From the IMG/VR virus record IMGVR_UViG_2534681978_000013: a stretch of DNA of 12,586 nt. One strand, written 5' to 3'. The stretch comes from a virus. Lineage: Duplodnaviria; Heunggongvirae; Uroviricota; Caudoviricetes. The position numbers were made by a program, and so were the translations under genes. This document shows, piece by piece, positions 977 through 12,586 of this stretch (the first letter of the stretch is position 1; the number at the start of each line of letters is the position of its first letter). Below the pieces are notes generated by a model. The model made no database searches, had not been told where the DNA came from, and was given only the letters and a program-made list of their open reading frames with translations.

Positions 977-3045
977 GATTTATCACCTCCGAAATTTTCA
1001 AGCCTGTTGGCAATCATGATGGCGATATCAGGGATTGCTGGCGCTGTGGCTATACATGCGGGGTTGGCGCACAAACCATAGACGGCGGCAATCACGAGCT
1101 GTCTTTTCCAGTCGAGAGTTACTGGCTCAGAATTGGCGTCATCGCCGGACGTATCACTGCCTGGCTCGTTCTGAACAACGGTTTCGCCCTCCTGAGCGGC
1201 ATCAACAGAGTTTTCCTGAATGATCTTCTCCTCAGTTTGTGCTGAGTCTTCTCCATCAGCGGCGTCATTTTCTCCAAAAGTTTCAGCGTAAGTTTCATCT
1301 CCCATTACTGGACCACAGTCAGGGCAATGGCCGCCACCGTTCCGACTGCATGTGGTGCAAACCTTTTCCACTTCCTGTTGCATTACTGGCCCTGGCTGTT
1401 GCTCTTCTGGCCCGTTTTGTTGCGTATCCGGGCTGTTTTGTCCCGCTTCTGGGGCAATTTGTTCCACTTTGGACTGATTCTGGTCCTCAGTGTCGCGAGT
1501 CTGGATCCCCTTCACCCACTTCGGATCAGCAGGGTTACTGATGCATTCAACGAATTCTCCACGCGAGGCAGCCAGTAATTTGTCGGCATCGACTGGATTT
1601 TTTGGGGGGATGTTTTCCCTGGCTTTATTGAGTTCCTCCCTCAGTTCCTGGTATTTCGTTTCTACAGATGAGACATTTTCCAGTGATTGCGTGTCCTCAT
1701 TATGTTTAACTGGAATTTCTTCCACTGATTCAGGCGCTGCCTGTTCATTAGCCATTGTGTCCGATGCTTGTTGCTTTTCTTCATCGCCATGTTTTCCTTC
1801 TGCTGTTCCGCACTGCGGCATCGGTGCTGATGAGCGACCGCAGGCAATTTCCACGATTTCCGGATCCGGGTTAGCGTGATCGGTTTCGGTCAACACTTTG
1901 TTGAGATATTCAGTCACGCGTGCCGGGATGGCCTCAATGCCGATTGGTGCTTCTTTCACGGAAGCCACCACAATGGCGCGGGAATAATCCAGCCCACCGG
2001 GCATGGCGATAAATTTGTCGCGAAAAACAGAAAAGGGCGGCTTATTCTCTGACACGATTTCTTCAACGCGTTTTGCGTGTGCTGGGTGCAGGTTATAAAT
2101 ATCCACATCCATTGAACGGGCCAGAACGCCGGTGGCTACATCTCGTGCGAGTGATGTCTTATCATGTTTGAATCCTTCACCACGATCGGTAATATTTCCG
2201 CCGCCAGCGTTAGCACCGGAAGGCGTACGGGTAATGCCTGAAACATAATTTCCGTTCTGCCATTCTTTTGTCAGCAGGCCCTGATCAAGGTAGTCAGTTT
2301 TCATCCAGGTGGAAATGAACTTGTCGAATTCAGCCGGGCTGATTCGATGATTTGCAGAGTGGGGGAATGCTTTCCCTACAGATTCAGCCAGGCGACTAAG
2401 GTGATAGTTCGTCAGTTTATCCAGTTCATGATGCGCGGCGCGCACAGCAGTAAGCAGGCTCTGAAGGTAACTGTCCTCTGTGTCCATCTCCATACGGATC
2501 ACGTTATTGCGTTGTTCTGGTGTGGCATGATGCCGGTATTTTCCATCTTCATCTTTGCTGAATAAGAAGAGGTGAAGGAAGCGATGAGTAAGGCTCAGAG
2601 TGGCGACGGGAATTTCACACTCAGAACAGTCATCGTCGCTGTCCGGGGATTCGCTTTTCTCCACATCATCCGGAATAGTTCCGTCCAGGTTATCGTTGTC
2701 ATCGCCAGCAGTTGTGGCATCTTCACCGTTGATGTTGTCATCGAAGGGGATAGCCATCATGGTGATGCCATCGTTACCGCCTTTTTCATAGCGGTTGCAG
2801 AATTCAGTATCAAACACGCCTTCCGGTGGAAGGTCATTCACGACGGGGAAATTTACGCGAACGGGTTTTTTGAAATCATCCTCGTCGTAGCCTGCATCGT
2901 CCATGGCTGCAATGCAGCGGGAAACTGCGACAGAAAGTTTTCTGGCCTCGGTCCAGAAAAAACCGCCTTTGATGCCAAGGCGTTTTCTGACTTTATCGTT
3001 TTTTGCTTCGCAGTGTAGTGCAAAAGTCTGTTTATCAGCGCTCAT
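973..3045 (-). CDS. Large acidic hypothetical protein (690 aa) with a CxxC-x7-CxxC zinc-ribbon motif; possibly related to the non-nuclease N-terminal region of RecE-family proteins
   Basis: Long uninterrupted ORF co-oriented with the pL operon. Contains D/E-rich low-complexity stretches and [15 protein letters not shown]. The block ...[16 protein letters not shown]...[58 protein letters not shown]... resembles, from memory only, the N-terminal part of Rac RecE. No C-terminal nuclease domain: the ORF ends where gam begins. Confidence 0.8.
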
Positions 3046-3152
3046 TGTATTTAAACCTCTGGCTGGATTAGAATTAGCGGCCCTTTGTCTGATTTCTCCG
3101 AATACGGTGACGCAGGGAGAAATCCGGTAGCCTGCGCTGCCGGATTTTTATT

Positions 3153-3539
3153 TCAGTGGAAGGTTGCCTGGTTTGCTGTTTTGTGAGTTGTTTTTCCCTT
3201 TTCGTGCTGGCATTCAGGGCAGTCGCACTCAGAATTTTCTCTTGCAAACTCAAGAGCCTGTGCAAGTGTATGGATTTGTTGTACTCCAATGTTGCTTCTG
3301 ACAACTTCACGTGCAGCATGAATATATGGGCTTGGTGTTTTGCCATTTAACCCACATAAAACAAAACGACTGTCCTTATATTCGTTATTTCCAACTTCTG
3401 TAAGCACTGAAAAAGAAAATACAAAGTCGATTTTGTATTCTTTGCATATTTTACTGATGCGTTCTGCAATTTCTTTGAGTTCATTTATTGCATCAGGACT
3501 GGTTTTGGAAAATATTTCATTTTGCGCAAGTTCTTTCAT
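3153..3539 (-). CDS. Hypothetical protein, 128 aa, AT-rich gene
   Basis: ORF in operon orientation; AT-rich by eye relative to the flanks; C-terminal CDCPEC cysteine cluster; no family recognised. Confidence 0.55.
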   Translation of the reverse strand: MKELAQNEIFSKTSPDAINELKEIAERISKICKEYKIDFVFSFSVLTEVGNNEYKDSRFVLCGLNGKTPSPYIHAAREVVRSNIGVQQIHTLAQALEFARENSECDCPECQHEKGKTTHKTANQATFH

Positions 3540-3622
3540 TTTGATTTTTCCGTGATTGATAATTAATGCGGTTTTATTTCGGCTTGTCTGTTACAGATAT
3601 GGAAGGTGTATTTTATTACTCG

Positions 3623-3862
3623 TCACAACGACGCTGCTTTTACGGGTAAGCCATCGCGCCCGATGAAAACTTTAATCATGCAGTCGGTAATGCATGTTTT
3701 TGTTGTGAAGTTACGAATATAGAGTTTTCTCTTTTCAATATTGTTTGCTGAAGCGATATATGTCCGACCTTCATGAAGAACATAATCGCCAGGCGTCACG
3801 CACTGACGTGGTATTTCATCAGTTTCGAAGTGATGAGCAATCATAATTATCTCCATTTTCAC
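3623..3862 (-). CDS. Hypothetical protein, about 77-79 aa (GTG at 3862 or ATG at 3856)
   Basis: ORF upstream of the 128-aa gene in the same AT-rich block; weak ribosome-binding site; no family recognised. Confidence 0.4.
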
Positions 3863-4017
3863 AAATGAACTTTGTTGATGCGGTGCCTGGTGCCTCCAGG
3901 TGACGTTAACCAGTTAACAACTAACGCCGGGTCAGGGGACGATGACTTTCCGTGACATCCTGTCGGTTTAACTGTTCCGCGTGCGCATAGCCGCATTCAC
4001 CGCATCACAAAATTCAC

Positions 4018-4061
4018 TTTAAAAAGGGCGGACATCAGCAATCGGCAAACCGATGTCCGCC
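4018..4061 (-). terminator. Intrinsic terminator for leftward transcription
   Basis: Perfect 10-bp GC-rich stem ggcggacatc (4027-4036) / gatgtccgcc (4052-4061); on the minus-strand RNA it is followed by CUUUUUAAA (reverse complement of 4018-4026). Confidence 0.55.
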
Positions 4062-4300
4062 AAGGGCTACACACAGCAATGTTGTTATTCACAACCGGAA
4101 GCGCACGGTCGAAGAAATCTAACGACAAGCCTTCAATGGGTAAGAGTCTTCGCCGTGCACTTTCGTGTTGTACCCTGGCTTTCAGGGTAATGTCTGTTCA
4201 GTAAACTGAGACTGCCGGAACTCACCCGTGTCCGGCGCACGATCTCCACCTCACCCGTGGAGAACTCCTCAACTACAAACCCCGTAAGGAGAGTGAATTT

Positions 4301-4510
4301 ATGACACAAGAAGAAAAAGTGATGTTTCTGATGCGGCTGGCTGTCGATACCCACAACACACAATTCAGGGAGAAAGATATACCTCAAAAGGCAGTTCCTG
4401 CCGCGGTAGATAAGGGCGGTGCTATTGCCGTATTTTACGATGCATTTGAATCATTTTTTGATGAAAAACTCGACGCTGTTAGCGACTTCGGAACATCGAG
4501 TAATAAATAA
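4301..4510 (+). CDS. Small hypothetical protein, 69 aa, transcribed opposite to the pL operon
   Basis: Strong Shine-Dalgarno AAGGAG 9 nt upstream of the ATG (gtaAGGAGagtgaatttATG); clean ORF ending TAA; a weak hairpin plus T-run follows. Confidence 0.6.
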   Translation: MTQEEKVMFLMRLAVDTHNTQFREKDIPQKAVPAAVDKGGAIAVFYDAFESFFDEKLDAVSDFGTSSNK

Positions 4511-4527
4511 CGTTCATTACGGTTCTT

Positions 4528-4562
4528 AAACAACAATCAGTGGGTTTGATGTTGTTCTTTTC
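4528..4562 (+). terminator. Possible weak intrinsic terminator after the 69-aa gene
   Basis: Imperfect AT-rich inverted repeat aaacaacaatca / tgatgttgtt followed by cttttc. Confidence 0.3.
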
Positions 4563-4712
4563 AAGCTCACTTGCCATCACTTCCATTATTCTTGCACTTA
4601 CACGAATTATTTGGTGGCTGTAAGCGACGCAACTGTCGCTGATATTGCTGTTTATTTCTATTACTTCATTTTCACTGGCGGCGCTAAATTTGGATATGCC
4701 GTTTCCATTGTC

Positions 4713-4838
4713 CTATTTCAGTGCTTTTTCTGCCATCTGGATGCGTGTCAGCGTTGCGGAATTTGGGCTAAGTCGATAAACCTGTCTGGCATCTTCCAGA
4801 AGCAGGGCGATAATGTGCTTCAGTTCTGTTTCATTCAT
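4713..4838 (-). CDS. Candidate small ORF, 41 aa (MNETELKHIIALLLEDARQVYRLSPNSATLTRIQMAEKALK)
   Basis: Found by hand translation, below the ORF-track threshold. GGAG 9-12 nt upstream of the ATG; lies between the 238-aa gene and the divergent gene in operon orientation. Confidence 0.25.
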   Translation of the reverse strand: MNETELKHIIALLLEDARQVYRLSPNSATLTRIQMAEKALK

Positions 4839-4869
4839 AGTTAACTCCGGTAGTTGCAATTTATTAATA

Positions 4870-5586
4870 TCAGGCGGTCAGCTCTTTAAGCTTCTGAACT
4901 GCTTTATTCATTTCATCCATACAGTCGATGAATTCGTCCAGTTTAAGCTGCATTTTTCCGGCGGCCTGAAGAATTTCAAGTTTTAAGGGCGCAAGTTTTT
5001 TGTTGAATGCATCATCTTCCTGGCGTTTTTTCTCCGCAATTTCGGCGGCTTTCAGCAATTCTTCAGCCTGTTTTCTGAGTATTTCTGGTGAAGGTGAAAC
5101 TGCTTTGAGGTTATTCATTTCAGGTTCCTGTTGTTGCAGAATTAATTTGTTGCATTCTCTGCGTGAGCGTTTCATTGCAGATTCGCACTTCTTGCAATAA
5201 ATGGCTCTCCCGTCACGCTTGCTGGCATCTGAATAAAAATCATTGACTGATTTTGTCTGCCCGCATCTGGTACATAATTTTGATTGAAGGTCCTTAATGA
5301 TTGTGACGTTTCCTTCCCGTTTGGGATATCCATATTTTTTGTGGCGGAAAAAGGTTACTCCGTTACCAGAACCTTCTTTTCTGACCTTAAATACAATGAT
5401 GCTTTCCCGTTTATCGATAAAATCTATGAGCTGGTTTCTCTCCTTTCCTGACAGTTCGGCAAATGTCTTAACTTTTTTAGTAACTTCCGTAAGGCGAACT
5501 CCATCAGGCATTTTTTCAACGAAGTTTTTAATCTCTGCAAGCGGACGCCATAATTTTTGCGGCAAAACTGAAGGCGTGGTCATCAA
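4870..5586 (-). CDS. Hypothetical protein, about 237 aa, with a zinc ribbon (CTRCGQ...CKKC) and a Lys/Glu-rich coiled-coil C-terminus
   Basis: The ATG at 5583 (or TTG at 5586) directly abuts the TGA stop of the N-like gene (tgaTTGATG), implying translational coupling with N. Occupies the sieB/ral-like position. Confidence 0.7.
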   Translation of the reverse strand: MMTTPSVLPQKLWRPLAEIKNFVEKMPDGVRLTEVTKKVKTFAELSGKERNQLIDFIDKRESIIVFKVRKEGSGNGVTFFRHKKYGYPKREGNVTIIKDLQSKLCTRCGQTKSVNDFYSDASKRDGRAIYCKKCESAMKRSRRECNKLILQQQEPEMNNLKAVSPSPEILRKQAEELLKAAEIAEKKRQEDDAFNKKLAPLKLEILQAAGKMQLKLDEFIDCMDEMNKAVQKLKELTA

Positions 5587-5970
5587 TCACCTCGCCGTCA
5601 GTTGTTTTGATTTCCGGTAGCCTGCCGCGTAAATGGCTACGTTTGGAAGACATACACCAGTTTCTGGTTGCTTATGTCCAAACTCATTCGCGTACACAAT
5701 GGCTGCTCGCTCCAGATTGCGTCTGTATTCTTTCTGTTGCCAGATCACGTCCTGTGCCATGAACTTAATTGGCTTAGCGTCTTCTATGCGCTCAGGCGTT
5801 TCGTGAGTACCTTTAGCCTGAATCTGCGCTCTGCTTAGAGTAGGGCGGTGTAATACTTCTGAACTTATTGCTTCTTCGCGGGCCAGCACGCCGTTAGCTA
5901 ATGCCTTTGCCTTTAAACGCTCACGACGATGAGAGCGTGAATTGCCTTTGAACTGAGTTCTGCGTGTCAT
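5587..5970 (-). CDS. N: N-like transcription antiterminator, 127 aa (non-lambda type)
   Basis: First gene downstream of pL. Perfect SD AGGAGG 5 nt upstream of the ATG. N-terminal arginine-rich motif MTRRTQFKGNSRSHRRERLKAKA; C-terminus ...AAGYRKSKQLTAR resembles my recollection of P22 gp24 / H-19B N. Cognate GACAA-loop boxB hairpins lie in both leaders. Confidence 0.75.
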   Translation of the reverse strand: MTRRTQFKGNSRSHRRERLKAKALANGVLAREEAISSEVLHRPTLSRAQIQAKGTHETPERIEDAKPIKFMAQDVIWQQKEYRRNLERAAIVYANEFGHKQPETGVCLPNVAIYAAGYRKSKQLTAR

Positions 5971-6135
5971 ATAGACCTCCTGATGAACTTTGGTGGTGTG
6001 GTAGGTGGGAGACCCATTTCGACCTGTTTCGGCCTACTTCAATTCGGCAATAGTCCCGCAGGCCCCGCCGCTTTACGTGCGACATATTCCCGTCCATGAA
6101 CCCTTCACCACACCCCAAAGTTCACTTTGGTTATT

Positions 6136-6440: not shown

Positions 6441-6466
6441 ACCCGGCGCTGAGGCCGGGTTTTTCT
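6441..6466. terminator. Bidirectional intrinsic terminator, end of the cI-cargo operon
   Basis: aaagaaa-ACCCGGC-gctgag-GCCGGGT-ttttct: a 7-bp GC stem flanked by an A-run and a T-run, immediately after the TAG stop of the 258-aa ORF. Lambda has the same hairpin left of rexB. Confidence 0.8.
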
Positions 6467-7241
6467 AGGCTACCAGAGACTCAATCCAAGAGTCTCTGGT
6501 ATGGAATGGCAACACTCGTGCGGTATCATTAAATAGTAGTGATAGTTGCTGTAGCTCAGGTGTTAACCCATCGCTGTCAACTATTACAAATCTATTGTTT
6601 ATGTCAGGAACGACCTGACTTAAGTCAACAATCTTCCCAACTGTTGAGTGGGCAGTATTCCATCCCTTACTGCTGGCAAGGCTTACCGTAAACCCGCGTT
6701 TTGGTGGTATTAGTCGAGACTCATTCCTTAGCGTTAACGGAACAGTAATGTTATGCCCACTAATACCTTTCACTTTTTCCTTTAAGGCTAGTCGCTTCCC
6801 AAGCCCTGCTGATTTTAAGTAACTGATTACACATTTTTCGAACTTATCGTCTTTGACCTCAGCATACCAATCAGCAGTTTGGGCGGATGCAAGAATCCCA
6901 CCACGAATAACATTTGCAGTTACCTGTCCAACGGACGACTCATCTGCCCACGCAGATATCTCTCCAGAGTCATTTAATGAAATTCCTTGCGAAGCGAGTG
7001 ATGACCTGATCAGATCAATTTTCTTTTTAGTCAGGTGGATGCCGCGTGATTCAATATTCATCAATGTATCGCAGTAGTCTGTAACCCTATACTGACCACT
7101 CATCTCTTGAACGAATACACTTATCTGCTCACAATCATCGTAGTATGTGAATGGACTAATAACGCGCAGCAACGTGTCGCTCATTGGGTGGCATTCAAAC
7201 CCGAGCTTAGATATGACTGTTGAACACGTTACATTTCCCAT
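6465..7241 (-). CDS. Hypothetical protein, 258 aa (alternative start at 7184), distal gene of the cassette in the rexB position
   Basis: Long ORF co-oriented with cI, overlapping the upstream 180-aa ORF by 13 nt; AT-rich by eye; no RexB similarity and no family recognised. Confidence 0.7.
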   Translation of the reverse strand: MGNVTCSTVISKLGFECHPMSDTLLRVISPFTYYDDCEQISVFVQEMSGQYRVTDYCDTLMNIESRGIHLTKKKIDLIRSSLASQGISLNDSGEISAWADESSVGQVTANVIRGGILASAQTADWYAEVKDDKFEKCVISYLKSAGLGKRLALKEKVKGISGHNITVPLTLRNESRLIPPKRGFTVSLASSKGWNTAHSTVGKIVDLSQVVPDINNRFVIVDSDGLTPELQQLSLLFNDTARVLPFHTRDSWIESLVA

Positions 7242-7771
7242 GATAACTGACCTGATTTATCTTGATTAGGTAAAGGTGGGCTGCCTTCATATATGATATT
7301 AAGCGCCTCGCAAAAATAATTCCAGTAGCCAAAAAAATCATCTGGCTTGATGTTCGTTTCAAGCTTAAGTGCAATTTCTTCCCCAGCTGATTCGAAGTAC
7401 ATGTGATAGTGAGGACCTCGAGCCACCTCAACAAAATCTGGATGGTTCACTATAGATTTATTACGGTGTGGCTTGTTATCCGCAGGGTACGGATCAAGCG
7501 CGTAAATGCGCCTGTCATGAAGAAACATCACAAATGAAATCTTCACTATATCCACCCCTTCAACGATAGGAGGACGCCAGTGAAGCATAAATCTTATGCC
7601 TGTGATTGGGTTGCCAATTTCATCAAAAGCTTTGAGATCCAATTTAAACCAGATTGGGGTTCGTCCCTCACTTCCGGTCCATGTAACTCCGCTAAAAGTT
7701 ACTTTTTTCAAGCGAGTAATAGCTTGGTCAACCTCTTTCTGGGTAGGCTTAAAGTCGCCTTTTTTAGCCAC
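7229..7771 (-). CDS. Hypothetical protein, 180 aa (GTG start), proximal gene of the cassette in the rexA position
   Basis: ORF begins 46 bp downstream of the cI stop with a GTG start and a GGTGA SD-like element upstream; no RexA similarity and no family recognised. Confidence 0.7.
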   Translation of the reverse strand: MAKKGDFKPTQKEVDQAITRLKKVTFSGVTWTGSEGRTPIWFKLDLKAFDEIGNPITGIRFMLHWRPPIVEGVDIVKISFVMFLHDRRIYALDPYPADNKPHRNKSIVNHPDFVEVARGPHYHMYFESAGEEIALKLETNIKPDDFFGYWNYFCEALNIIYEGSPPLPNQDKSGQLSWEM

Positions 7772-7817: not shown

Positions 7818-8534
<717 letters not shown>

Positions 8535-12147: not shown

Positions 12148-12586
12148 TTGCCGGAGGGCTTGTGGCAAAAGTTTTTACACAAGAAGAGCGGGAGAAAATT
12201 AAAGGGCAGGTTGTTGAACTCGTACGCCAGAGTGGGCGCGAGACGTTACGACAACTGGAAACTAAAACTGGGGCAACAAGATATCTGATGAGCGTTCTGG
12301 CCAGAGAACTGGTTGCCAGTGGCGATGTATACAACTCTGGTTACGGGTTATTCCCGTCTGAACAGGCGCGTAAGGACTGGCAAAATGCTCGCAAAAAACT
12401 CTCAAGGGCAAAGGTGAAGAAACCTGCAGTGGTTGATCCGGACCTTATCTGGTCGTTACCAGACGGCGAAATACGCCGCTACGACAGGCGNCNGAANATA
12501 ATCTGTCGCGAGTGCCGGAAGAGCGAAGTTATGCAGCGCGTACTGGCGNTTTATCANGGTAANTTTCAGGNNGTAGCGCAGTGAGT
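12144..12586 (+). CDS. Hypothetical protein, partial (runs off the window end), probable GTG start overlapping the upstream stop
   Basis: GTG at 12144 overlaps the TGA at 12145-12147 (GTGA) and is in frame with track ORF 12048..12584; the ATG at 12048 lies inside the upstream gene. The 3' end contains ambiguous bases. Confidence 0.5.

Follow-up and report, generated by a model that had tools for sequence, protein, structure and literature searches.

The window analysed here, a stretch of 12,586 nt from the virus record IMGVR_UViG_2534681978_000013 (Caudoviricetes), raises the question of what two small genes are doing immediately behind a strong terminator in the immunity and early-left region of a lambdoid prophage. 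The two minus-strand open reading frames (ORFs), 3623-3862 and 3153-3539, had been located in an earlier note made from the letters alone, which read them as a terminator-insulated, horizontally acquired moron with its own regulation, possibly a toxin-antitoxin or anti-restriction module. Very probably, the region is no autonomous module but the part of an N-dependent early-left (pL) operon that carries the division inhibitor, in a lambdoid prophage with lambda immunity. The locus appears to be a new orthologous copy of the known arrangement of a KilS-type small RNA (sRNA), a leader and kilR, placed in an N-controlled operon, plus one uncharacterised cargo gene, here called orf128. The supposed insulated gene pair turns out to be the kil module, which is well studied in lambdoid and Rac-type prophages, and there is no need to propose a new system; the interest lies in the roles of the widespread folded leader and of orf128.

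The kil module and its probable operon

The smaller ORF is, judged by its homologues, KilR, and papers on these homologues make it the probable functional counterpart of lambda Kil, with which KilR has no sequence similarity (PMC5793797). The earlier view that neither protein is Kil-like was wrong in substance, this ORF being an ordinary conserved early gene of lambdoid and Rac prophages. The 79-aa reading begins at a GTG that is part of an RNA helix. All homologues start at the ATG at 3844, which gives a protein of 73 aa with the Shine-Dalgarno sequence GGAG (3854-3851) 7 nt upstream. The NCBIfam model NF008465, "FtsZ inhibitor protein", covers residues 1-72 of the 73 with 150.1 bits against a cut-off of 92, PHROG 294 (Kil) matches with an E-value of 1e-34, and the identity to KilR of the Rac prophage of Escherichia coli K-12 is 89%. 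Furthermore, kil or kilR is the annotation in all close public records, and the KilR proteins of the relatives have precomputed PF27398 matches. KilR inhibits FtsZ and also disturbs MreB (PMC5793797, PMC12482147), and its activity requires an intact C-terminal region of about 12 residues (PMC12482147); the C-terminal region of the window protein has the same length as that of K-12 KilR. Codon 7 (window 3825) is Glu here, and Gly in K-12 KilR, in Escherichia phage PhiR5_2 and in the copy on an E. coli O104:H4 chromosome.

The terminator in front of kilR is as strong as the earlier note had it, but it does not insulate a moron: a KilS-type sRNA has its 3' end here. Its two arms (4027-4036 and 4052-4061) form 10 bp without a mismatch, the stem grows to 13 bp in the minimum-energy fold, and a run of five U (4025-4021) follows on the minus strand. 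The fold has a z-score of -3.85, and none of 200 shuffled sequences folded as well. The hairpin was missed by a consensus terminator scan because its loop is longer than 8 nt. K-12 kilS (b4833) is annotated as an ncRNA of 98 nt, about 175 nt upstream of kilR, and 80 of 90 aligned nt are identical in the window sRNA, terminator and U-run included. In the window RNA the terminator loop is shorter, and 11 nt are inserted near the 5' end. The position is also as in K-12, the terminator with its five U lying 176 nt upstream of the kilR ATG. Hfq RIL-seq data led to the prediction of K-12 KilS, and a northern blot confirmed it (PMC8175672). By alignment, 4021-4124 is a homologue of this RNA, with Hfq association and accumulation known for K-12 only. 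The 3' half of the hairpin, the CCCUUUUUAAAGUG after it and the downstream sequence are invariant in kilS of Rac and in dicF of the Qin prophage. With DicF, the window sRNA shares only this terminator half, and its seed differs.

Of the two K-12 systems, kilS-kilR of Rac has the same elements in the same order, namely an sRNA with a terminator, a leader of about 176 nt and a 73-aa KilR. In Rac, a defective prophage under RacR, ydaE-racC-recE come next, whereas the window prophage has lambda immunity and N, orf128 in place of ydaE and racC, and a 690-aa RecE-like protein followed by gam. In dicF-dicB of Qin, homology to the window covers the 3' half of the terminator, the sequence behind it and the folded leader. 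A small division inhibitor gene comes after the leader, and the sRNA stems from a polycistronic transcript; the sRNA seed is different, and the DicB protein is unrelated to KilR.

A side observation on the sRNA concerns RprA, which is encoded in the core genome. The exact 14-nt run AUUGCUGUGUGUAG (4065-4078, minus strand), with similar flanks, is common to RprA and the window KilS, the corresponding run between RprA and K-12 KilS being 16 nt, and the terminator comes directly 3' of it in both RNAs. A 14-nt match to RprA was attained in only 2 of 200 shuffles of the window sequence, and we found no mention of the common run in the literature; the two RNAs could share targets. The Rfam model of RprA (RF00034) gives 29.7 bits (E 0.46), below its gathering score of 70, and Rfam at gathering thresholds had no match anywhere in the window.

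The minus-strand order is N, a 238-aa ORF, the kil region, the gene of the RecE-like protein and gam, and N, boxB and the pL/OL operators lie upstream of kilR on the same strand. A consensus scan, the only promoter search made, found no promoter-like site on the minus strand between 4130 and 3040; the proposal that the gene pair has its own regulation was not borne out, as neither 3863-4020 nor 3540-3622 gave such a site. With pL/OL, boxB and N upstream and no promoter-like site inside, the genes of 3153-4061 are most likely N-dependent delayed-early genes of the pL operon. A search for boxA with GCTCTTTA gave matches no more frequent than chance. The O104:H4 chromosome (E. coli FDAARGOS_349) is 99.7% identical to window positions 3000-4900, and PhiR5_2 is 98.8% identical to 3000-4300. 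The order N-237 aa-118 aa-KilR-orf128-Exonuc_VIII-like-Gam-RecT/Bet-YqaJ/Exo is kept in nearly all relatives examined, and the synteny around KilR and orf128 persists despite differing immunity regions; in the close relatives, bet and exo come after gam.

In lambda, the intrinsic terminator tL1 downstream of N gates the toxic division inhibitor kil and the recombination genes. The window likewise has N, boxB, pL and a terminator before a division inhibitor, and this terminator may be a tL-type gate before kilR within an N-antiterminated operon, a proposal that leans on the known antitermination by lambda N. Besides the dissimilar inhibitor proteins, the difference is that in the window the terminator doubles as the 3' end of an sRNA.

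The locus probably works as follows. In the lysogen, pL would be kept off by cI, stray transcripts would end at the KilS terminator (4061-4027), and the toxic kilR would be silent. Rho and NusG could be a further block on stray transcripts, as shown for Rac, where kilR is silenced by NusG/Rho-dependent termination and de-silenced via OxyS (PMC5793797). The terminated or processed RNA would be able to accumulate as a small Hfq-binding RNA. Upon induction, N acting at nutL would let RNA polymerase pass the terminator, and the 176-nt leader, kilR, the slot with orf128, and the recombination genes from the recE-like gene and gam onwards would be expressed in this order as delayed-early genes. KilR would then stop Z-ring formation and the organisation of MreB.

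The folded leader of kilR

The 165-bp stretch between the terminator and the ORF had been described as non-coding, which stands in so far as the 45-aa ORF within the stretch lacks conservation in Rac and Qin. It is not a simple spacer; it is a conserved leader RNA with a predicted fold of four helices. The inverted repeats noticed earlier, CCTGG/CCAGG (3886-3890/3896-3900) and the GTTAAC region (3902-3928), are real and belong to a structure conserved far beyond chance. Of the 21 pairs of the closing helix P1, 9 show compensatory changes, and its alignment cells are paired in 98%; the inverted repeat I3 is part of it, and it is longer still in the single-sequence fold. Hairpin H1 has 5 pairs and is 100% paired in the 14 sequences, with a change from G-C to G-U at one position. 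In H4, 3 of 11 pairs show compensatory changes and 89% of cells are paired. The middle pair of H5 is U-A in 8 of the 14 sequences and G-C in the other 6. RNAalifold recovered the four helices, with 42 pairs, from the subgroup of window-like sequences, and the fold z-score of the leader is -3.64. Over all helices 96.1% of cells are paired, as compared to 35-43% when the partners are slid, 13 pairs are compensatory, and none of 500 shuffles reached the observed values.

The same leader is found in front of other genes. It is identical at 145 of 168 nt to the kilS-kilR leader of Rac and at 146 of 160 nt to the dicF-dicB leader of Qin. A query of 3000-4900 matched 4616 of 5426 complete E. coli genomes, most of them with a match of about 86% at positions 3864-4031. 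The architecture of the leader is that of STnc100, an RNA of Enterobacterales prophages: a closing helix GGUGAA...CACC, a variable hairpin and, right after this, the invariant hairpin CCNGG-AGGCA-CCNGG, all present here with covariation. In the window the first hairpin is GCGGC...GCGC, not CCCCC...GGGG, so that H1 appears as a subgroup-specific variant of the STnc100 hairpin, and the closing helix is extended to 21-28 bp. Also, a ribosome-binding site and an ORF follow the window leader, whereas many STnc100 copies are followed by a seed-like stretch and a terminator, or by a tRNA. The ORFs 3' of other leaders with the long helix are diverse, which implies no special tie of the leader to division inhibitors. 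It may set the translation or the processing of kilR, an idea taken from the structured leader of lambda N. A leader with such strong covariation in front of kilR, dicB and many other prophage cistrons deserves attention, as it sits where the expression of toxic genes must be controlled.

To place the leader in its family, we scanned a genome collection with the core CACCNGGAGGCACCNGGCAC and obtained more than 120 DNA stretches, most of them from many genera of Enterobacterales. Among 145 occurrences of the motif in all sequences compared, the N:N positions (the middle pair of H5) were G:C in 112, U:A in 20 and A:U in 2, and the remaining combinations were mostly chance matches outside Enterobacterales. 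The helix closing on GGUGAA...CACC covaries in 104 distinct copies, with U:A in 55 and C:G in 43 at one position and G:C in 83 and A:U in 12 at the next; it was paired in 88.7% when in register and in 19-46% when out of register. The H4 stem has an entirely different sequence in other STnc100-class copies and keeps its self-complementarity. Many of the scanned loci score 47-90 bits for STnc100, among them a near-identical leader from Pseudescherichia, which attains the gathering score with 47.8 bits. The loci are often found in arrays with tRNAs, isrI, isrK and C4. STnc100 itself has no function with an established assignment in the literature, and a lead on PasD/STnc100 from the literature was dropped as PasD maps to the late region and not to the kil locus.

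Some further observations were made on leaders of this kind. In Enterobacter, Superficieibacter and Pantoea we saw tandem arrays of up to four STnc100-class copies per 2 kb, interleaved with tRNA genes and isrI (loci L041, L063, L091, L099 and L113), and isrK and C4 matches on other scanned loci. Phage P7 has its copy (L138, 2501-2616) in the ban operon, with tRNA-Thr and terB on either side. Many copies have a variable stretch of about 30-60 nt and then a terminator behind the module, an arrangement which resembles a scaffold for varied sRNA 3' parts. At 3898 the O104:H4 copy has C in place of U, which makes the middle pair of H5 a C-A mismatch. Finally, the N gene of the window also has a leader (5968-6128, minus strand) with a long closing helix (z-score -3.66), the ends of which are nearly those of the kilR leader, 5' AAAGUGAAyUUUG..GGUGAA and 3' ACCrCAyCA.CAAAGUUCAU just before the ribosome-binding site; the Rfam model of STnc100 does not match it.

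orf128, its slot and the competing readings

In a windowed calculation of GC content, the earlier statement that both ORFs are AT-rich held for orf128 only. Its GC of 0.382, with 0.295 at third codon positions (GC3), is at the 3rd percentile of all 387-bp windows and below flanks of 0.42-0.50, and the minimum of the whole window (0.339, mean 0.477) starts at 3356, inside the gene. kilR, at 0.419, is at the 18th percentile and like the other early genes here (0.41-0.45). The spacer between the two genes (3540-3622, 83 nt) has a GC of 0.325. Similarity to kilR-bearing phages without orf128 ends at about 3609, and similarity to recE-bearing genomes without orf128 at about 3059-3066; this slot is filled elsewhere by ydaE and racC (Rac-type), by a DUF1482 gene (Qin-like prophages of O157) or by ydaE and orf128. 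Among 5426 complete E. coli genomes, 81 have orf128, as do six phage records, which represent four phages (PhiR5_2, phiSTEC1589-Stx1c, Shigella phage 75/02 Stx and POCJ13). In every context that was read, it lies between kilR, or kilR-ydaE, and a RecE-like gene, followed by gam, bet and exo.

The ratio of nonsynonymous to synonymous divergence (dN/dS) of orf128 is 0.19-0.62, which implies that it is a real gene. Its dN of 0.21-0.24 is about seven times that of KilR and Gam (about 0.03) and compares with 0.09 for the RecE-like gene; dS is also above that of the neighbours, and the alleles look mosaic. The residues C32, C107 and C110 are invariant, and exactly one Cys is found at position 62 or 66 in all 14 sequences, a pattern which suggests a four-cysteine metal site. 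PHROG 2016, of unknown function, matches over the full length (E 1.9e-78). Pfam gave only DUF1281_C, at E 0.028 and below its cut-off, NCBIfam and PADLOC gave no match, and none of the anti-defence, anti-restriction or toxin-antitoxin families in PADLOC, Pfam, NCBIfam and PHROG was hit. Word-indexed and exhaustive profile searches found relatives only among prophage proteins of E. coli and Shigella, down to 58% identity; RacC, in the same position in Rac, has no similarity to orf128. A 412-aa repetitive protein, the only outlier among 1.84 billion representatives, was rejected as spurious (hhalign probability 8%). Matches of the single sequence to the N-terminal part of Dbh/Dpo4 in the PDB (E 0.5-0.9) were gone with the family profile, and a designed propeller matched by that profile (E 0.002) was, like these, treated as chance. 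Two AlphaFold runs reached pLDDT values of 67 and 58, the five models of each run disagreeing in confidence; the models are all-helical, yet the sequence is strand-prone in places, and fold searches were uninformative. After the stop codon comes a hairpin (3120-3147) that is terminator-like but has its U-run (TTTTTATTT) on the plus strand only, and so faces against the early-left operon.

We consider orf128 most likely to be a small metal-binding accessory early protein that acts on a target in the host or in a competitor. A narrower proposal, which we put forward only tentatively and with considerable doubt, is a small zinc-binding effector of anti-defence or host takeover, carried as rapidly diversifying, exchangeable cargo beside kil in Stx-type lambdoid phages. 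As a fast-evolving orphan in Stx-converting phages and in E. coli O104:H4, it is in any case a reasonable candidate for accessory or anti-defence screens.

How much of this segment could be an acquired unit after all? Of the moron first proposed, kilR drops out and the case holds for orf128 only, in its composition, slot, rarity and divergence. That orf128 alone is a horizontally acquired moron-type gene in the kil-recE slot that encodes an effector of anti-defence or host takeover, and is perhaps expressed in part independently, is possible but on the unlikely side. It is an extra gene between conserved neighbours, in a slot with discrete edges and different cargo in other prophages, and it is rare, has the lowest GC of the window and diverges far faster than KilR and Gam, with mosaic-looking alleles; it lies in accessory early-left territory beside Gam, with a hairpin directly 3' of its stop codon. 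A differently filled slot and a distinct base composition are also what marks the morons of HK97 and lambda. Unlike those, orf128 has no detectable promoter of its own, the consensus scan giving no sigma-70-like site upstream, and no apparent terminator in the sense orientation, the U-run of its hairpin being on the opposite strand. Its dN/dS is below 1, both fold models are of low confidence, and it has no match in PADLOC, Pfam or NCBIfam and no known anti-defence family. The same lack of family matches, toxin-antitoxin and anti-restriction families included, speaks against the module proposed earlier, and orf128 by itself may have an accessory or anti-defence role. It is improbable that kilR and orf128 form a toxin-antitoxin or toxin-modulator pair in which orf128 is the antidote or regulator, even though KilR is a proven toxin and orf128 is directly downstream of kilR or kilR-ydaE in all contexts examined. 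This reading, like that of the two ORFs as a unit, fails on co-occurrence, as 1960 of the 5426 genomes have kilR and 81 have orf128, so that more than 95% of kilR copies are without orf128. The genes are 83 nt apart, non-overlapping and without a predicted promoter, ydaE intervenes in some relatives, no toxin-antitoxin family matches, and descent from one phage lineage of conserved synteny accounts for the constant linkage. Most improbable of all is that the 165-bp stretch is the gene of a 45-aa protein (3859-3996) or an operator or palindrome region acting as DNA, and not an RNA element. The ORF does exist, with a short match to PHROG 24763, and GTTAAC is a palindrome in DNA. However, the ORF is broken or frame-shifted in the homologous leaders of Rac and Qin, the substitutions are compensatory on the RNA helices, and the element lies inside transcripts in many contexts, also between tRNAs.

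The reading as a division-inhibitor segment of the pL operon has its own difficulties, and they should be set beside these alternatives. Neither RNA passes its Rfam model. The window sRNA has 29.5 bits for DicF (RF00039), below the gathering score of 48 (DicF of K-12 has 76.7 bits), a low score that is due to the differing seed, and the leader has 31 bits (E 1.4e-4) for STnc100 (RF02076), against a gathering score of 47; the K-12 leaders are likewise below this threshold, with 34.4 bits for dicF-dicB and 28 bits for kilS-kilR. We found no experiment on the function of the kilR leader in the literature. Processing by RNase III in the dicF-dicB leader was considered and rejected, as the published dicBF site maps upstream of dicF, and two RNase III cleavage maps contain nothing on dicB or kilR. 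Sequence identities, synteny, the RNA structure with its covariation, base composition and distribution were observed directly; the read-through by N and the co-transcription of orf128 are steps that we infer. For orf128, profile, PDB and fold searches lend no support to a function from homology or from a reliable structure, and its moron-like features (low GC, discrete boundaries and its own 3' hairpin) are not explained by the operon.

Positions of the features and other genes of the window

Table 1. Features of the kil region and its surroundings, in window coordinates.
Feature	Position	Strand	Remark
12-bp hairpin after orf128 stop codon	3120-3147		inside slot; inverted repeat I6, 92% complementary
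Variable cargo slot, kilR to recE-like gene	3066-3609	minus	boundaries approximate
orf128	3153-3539	minus	AT-rich orphan gene, putative Cys4 metal site
kilR	3623-3844	minus	73-aa Rac-type Kil protein, predicted inhibitor of FtsZ and MreB organisation
Structured leader RNA of kilR	3845-4020	minus	apparent diverged STnc100 relative
Closing helix P1, 3' strand	3864-3885	minus	ends 9 nt before the kilR Shine-Dalgarno sequence
Leader hairpin H5	3886-3900	minus	CCUGG-AGGCA-CCAGG, the cctgg/ccagg repeat
Leader hairpin H4	3902-3928	minus	the gttaac-cag-ttaac repeat
Leader hairpin H1	3979-3994	minus	GCGGC...GC.GC
Closing helix P1, 5' strand	3998-4018	minus	pairs with 3864-3885
KilS homologue	4021-4124	minus	counterpart of the Hfq-dependent sRNA of K-12 Rac; 5' end approximate, from alignment
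Intrinsic terminator hairpin of KilS homologue	4027-4061	minus	putative tL-type gate before kilR
238-aa ORF	4870-5586	minus	directly 3' of N; PHROG 2539, unknown function
N gene	5587-5970	minus	Pfam N_peptide
boxB hairpin GCGCUGACAAAGCGC	~6151-6137	minus	upstream of kil region
Lambda pL/OL operators	~6290-6220		left side, upstream of kil region
Lambda-type cI	7818-8531	minus	cro, cII and replication genes also on right side of window

Some observations on the other genes of the window can be added. The translation of the last ORF has X residues, which implies ambiguous bases near the right end of the window (12500-12586). A 119-aa ORF (4479-4838, minus strand; PHROG 2982) that is conserved in the relatives has an amber codon at position 42 here (4713-4715); window position 4715 is A, and G in PhiR5_2 and O104:H4 FDAARGOS_349. 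The 238-aa ORF has a central cysteine-rich segment, at about residues 100-165; the PHROG families that match this segment have the annotations endonuclease VII, HNH endonuclease and Lar-like restriction alleviation. Between cI and pL, in the position of rexAB in lambda, are two minus-strand genes of 180 aa (7229-7771) and 258 aa (6465-7241), with weak matches to the candidate defence pair PDC-M24A/B in PADLOC (E 4e-4 and 5e-7) and to the Pfam families DUF6978 and DUF1828, and a strong terminator at about 6466-6435 follows this gene pair.

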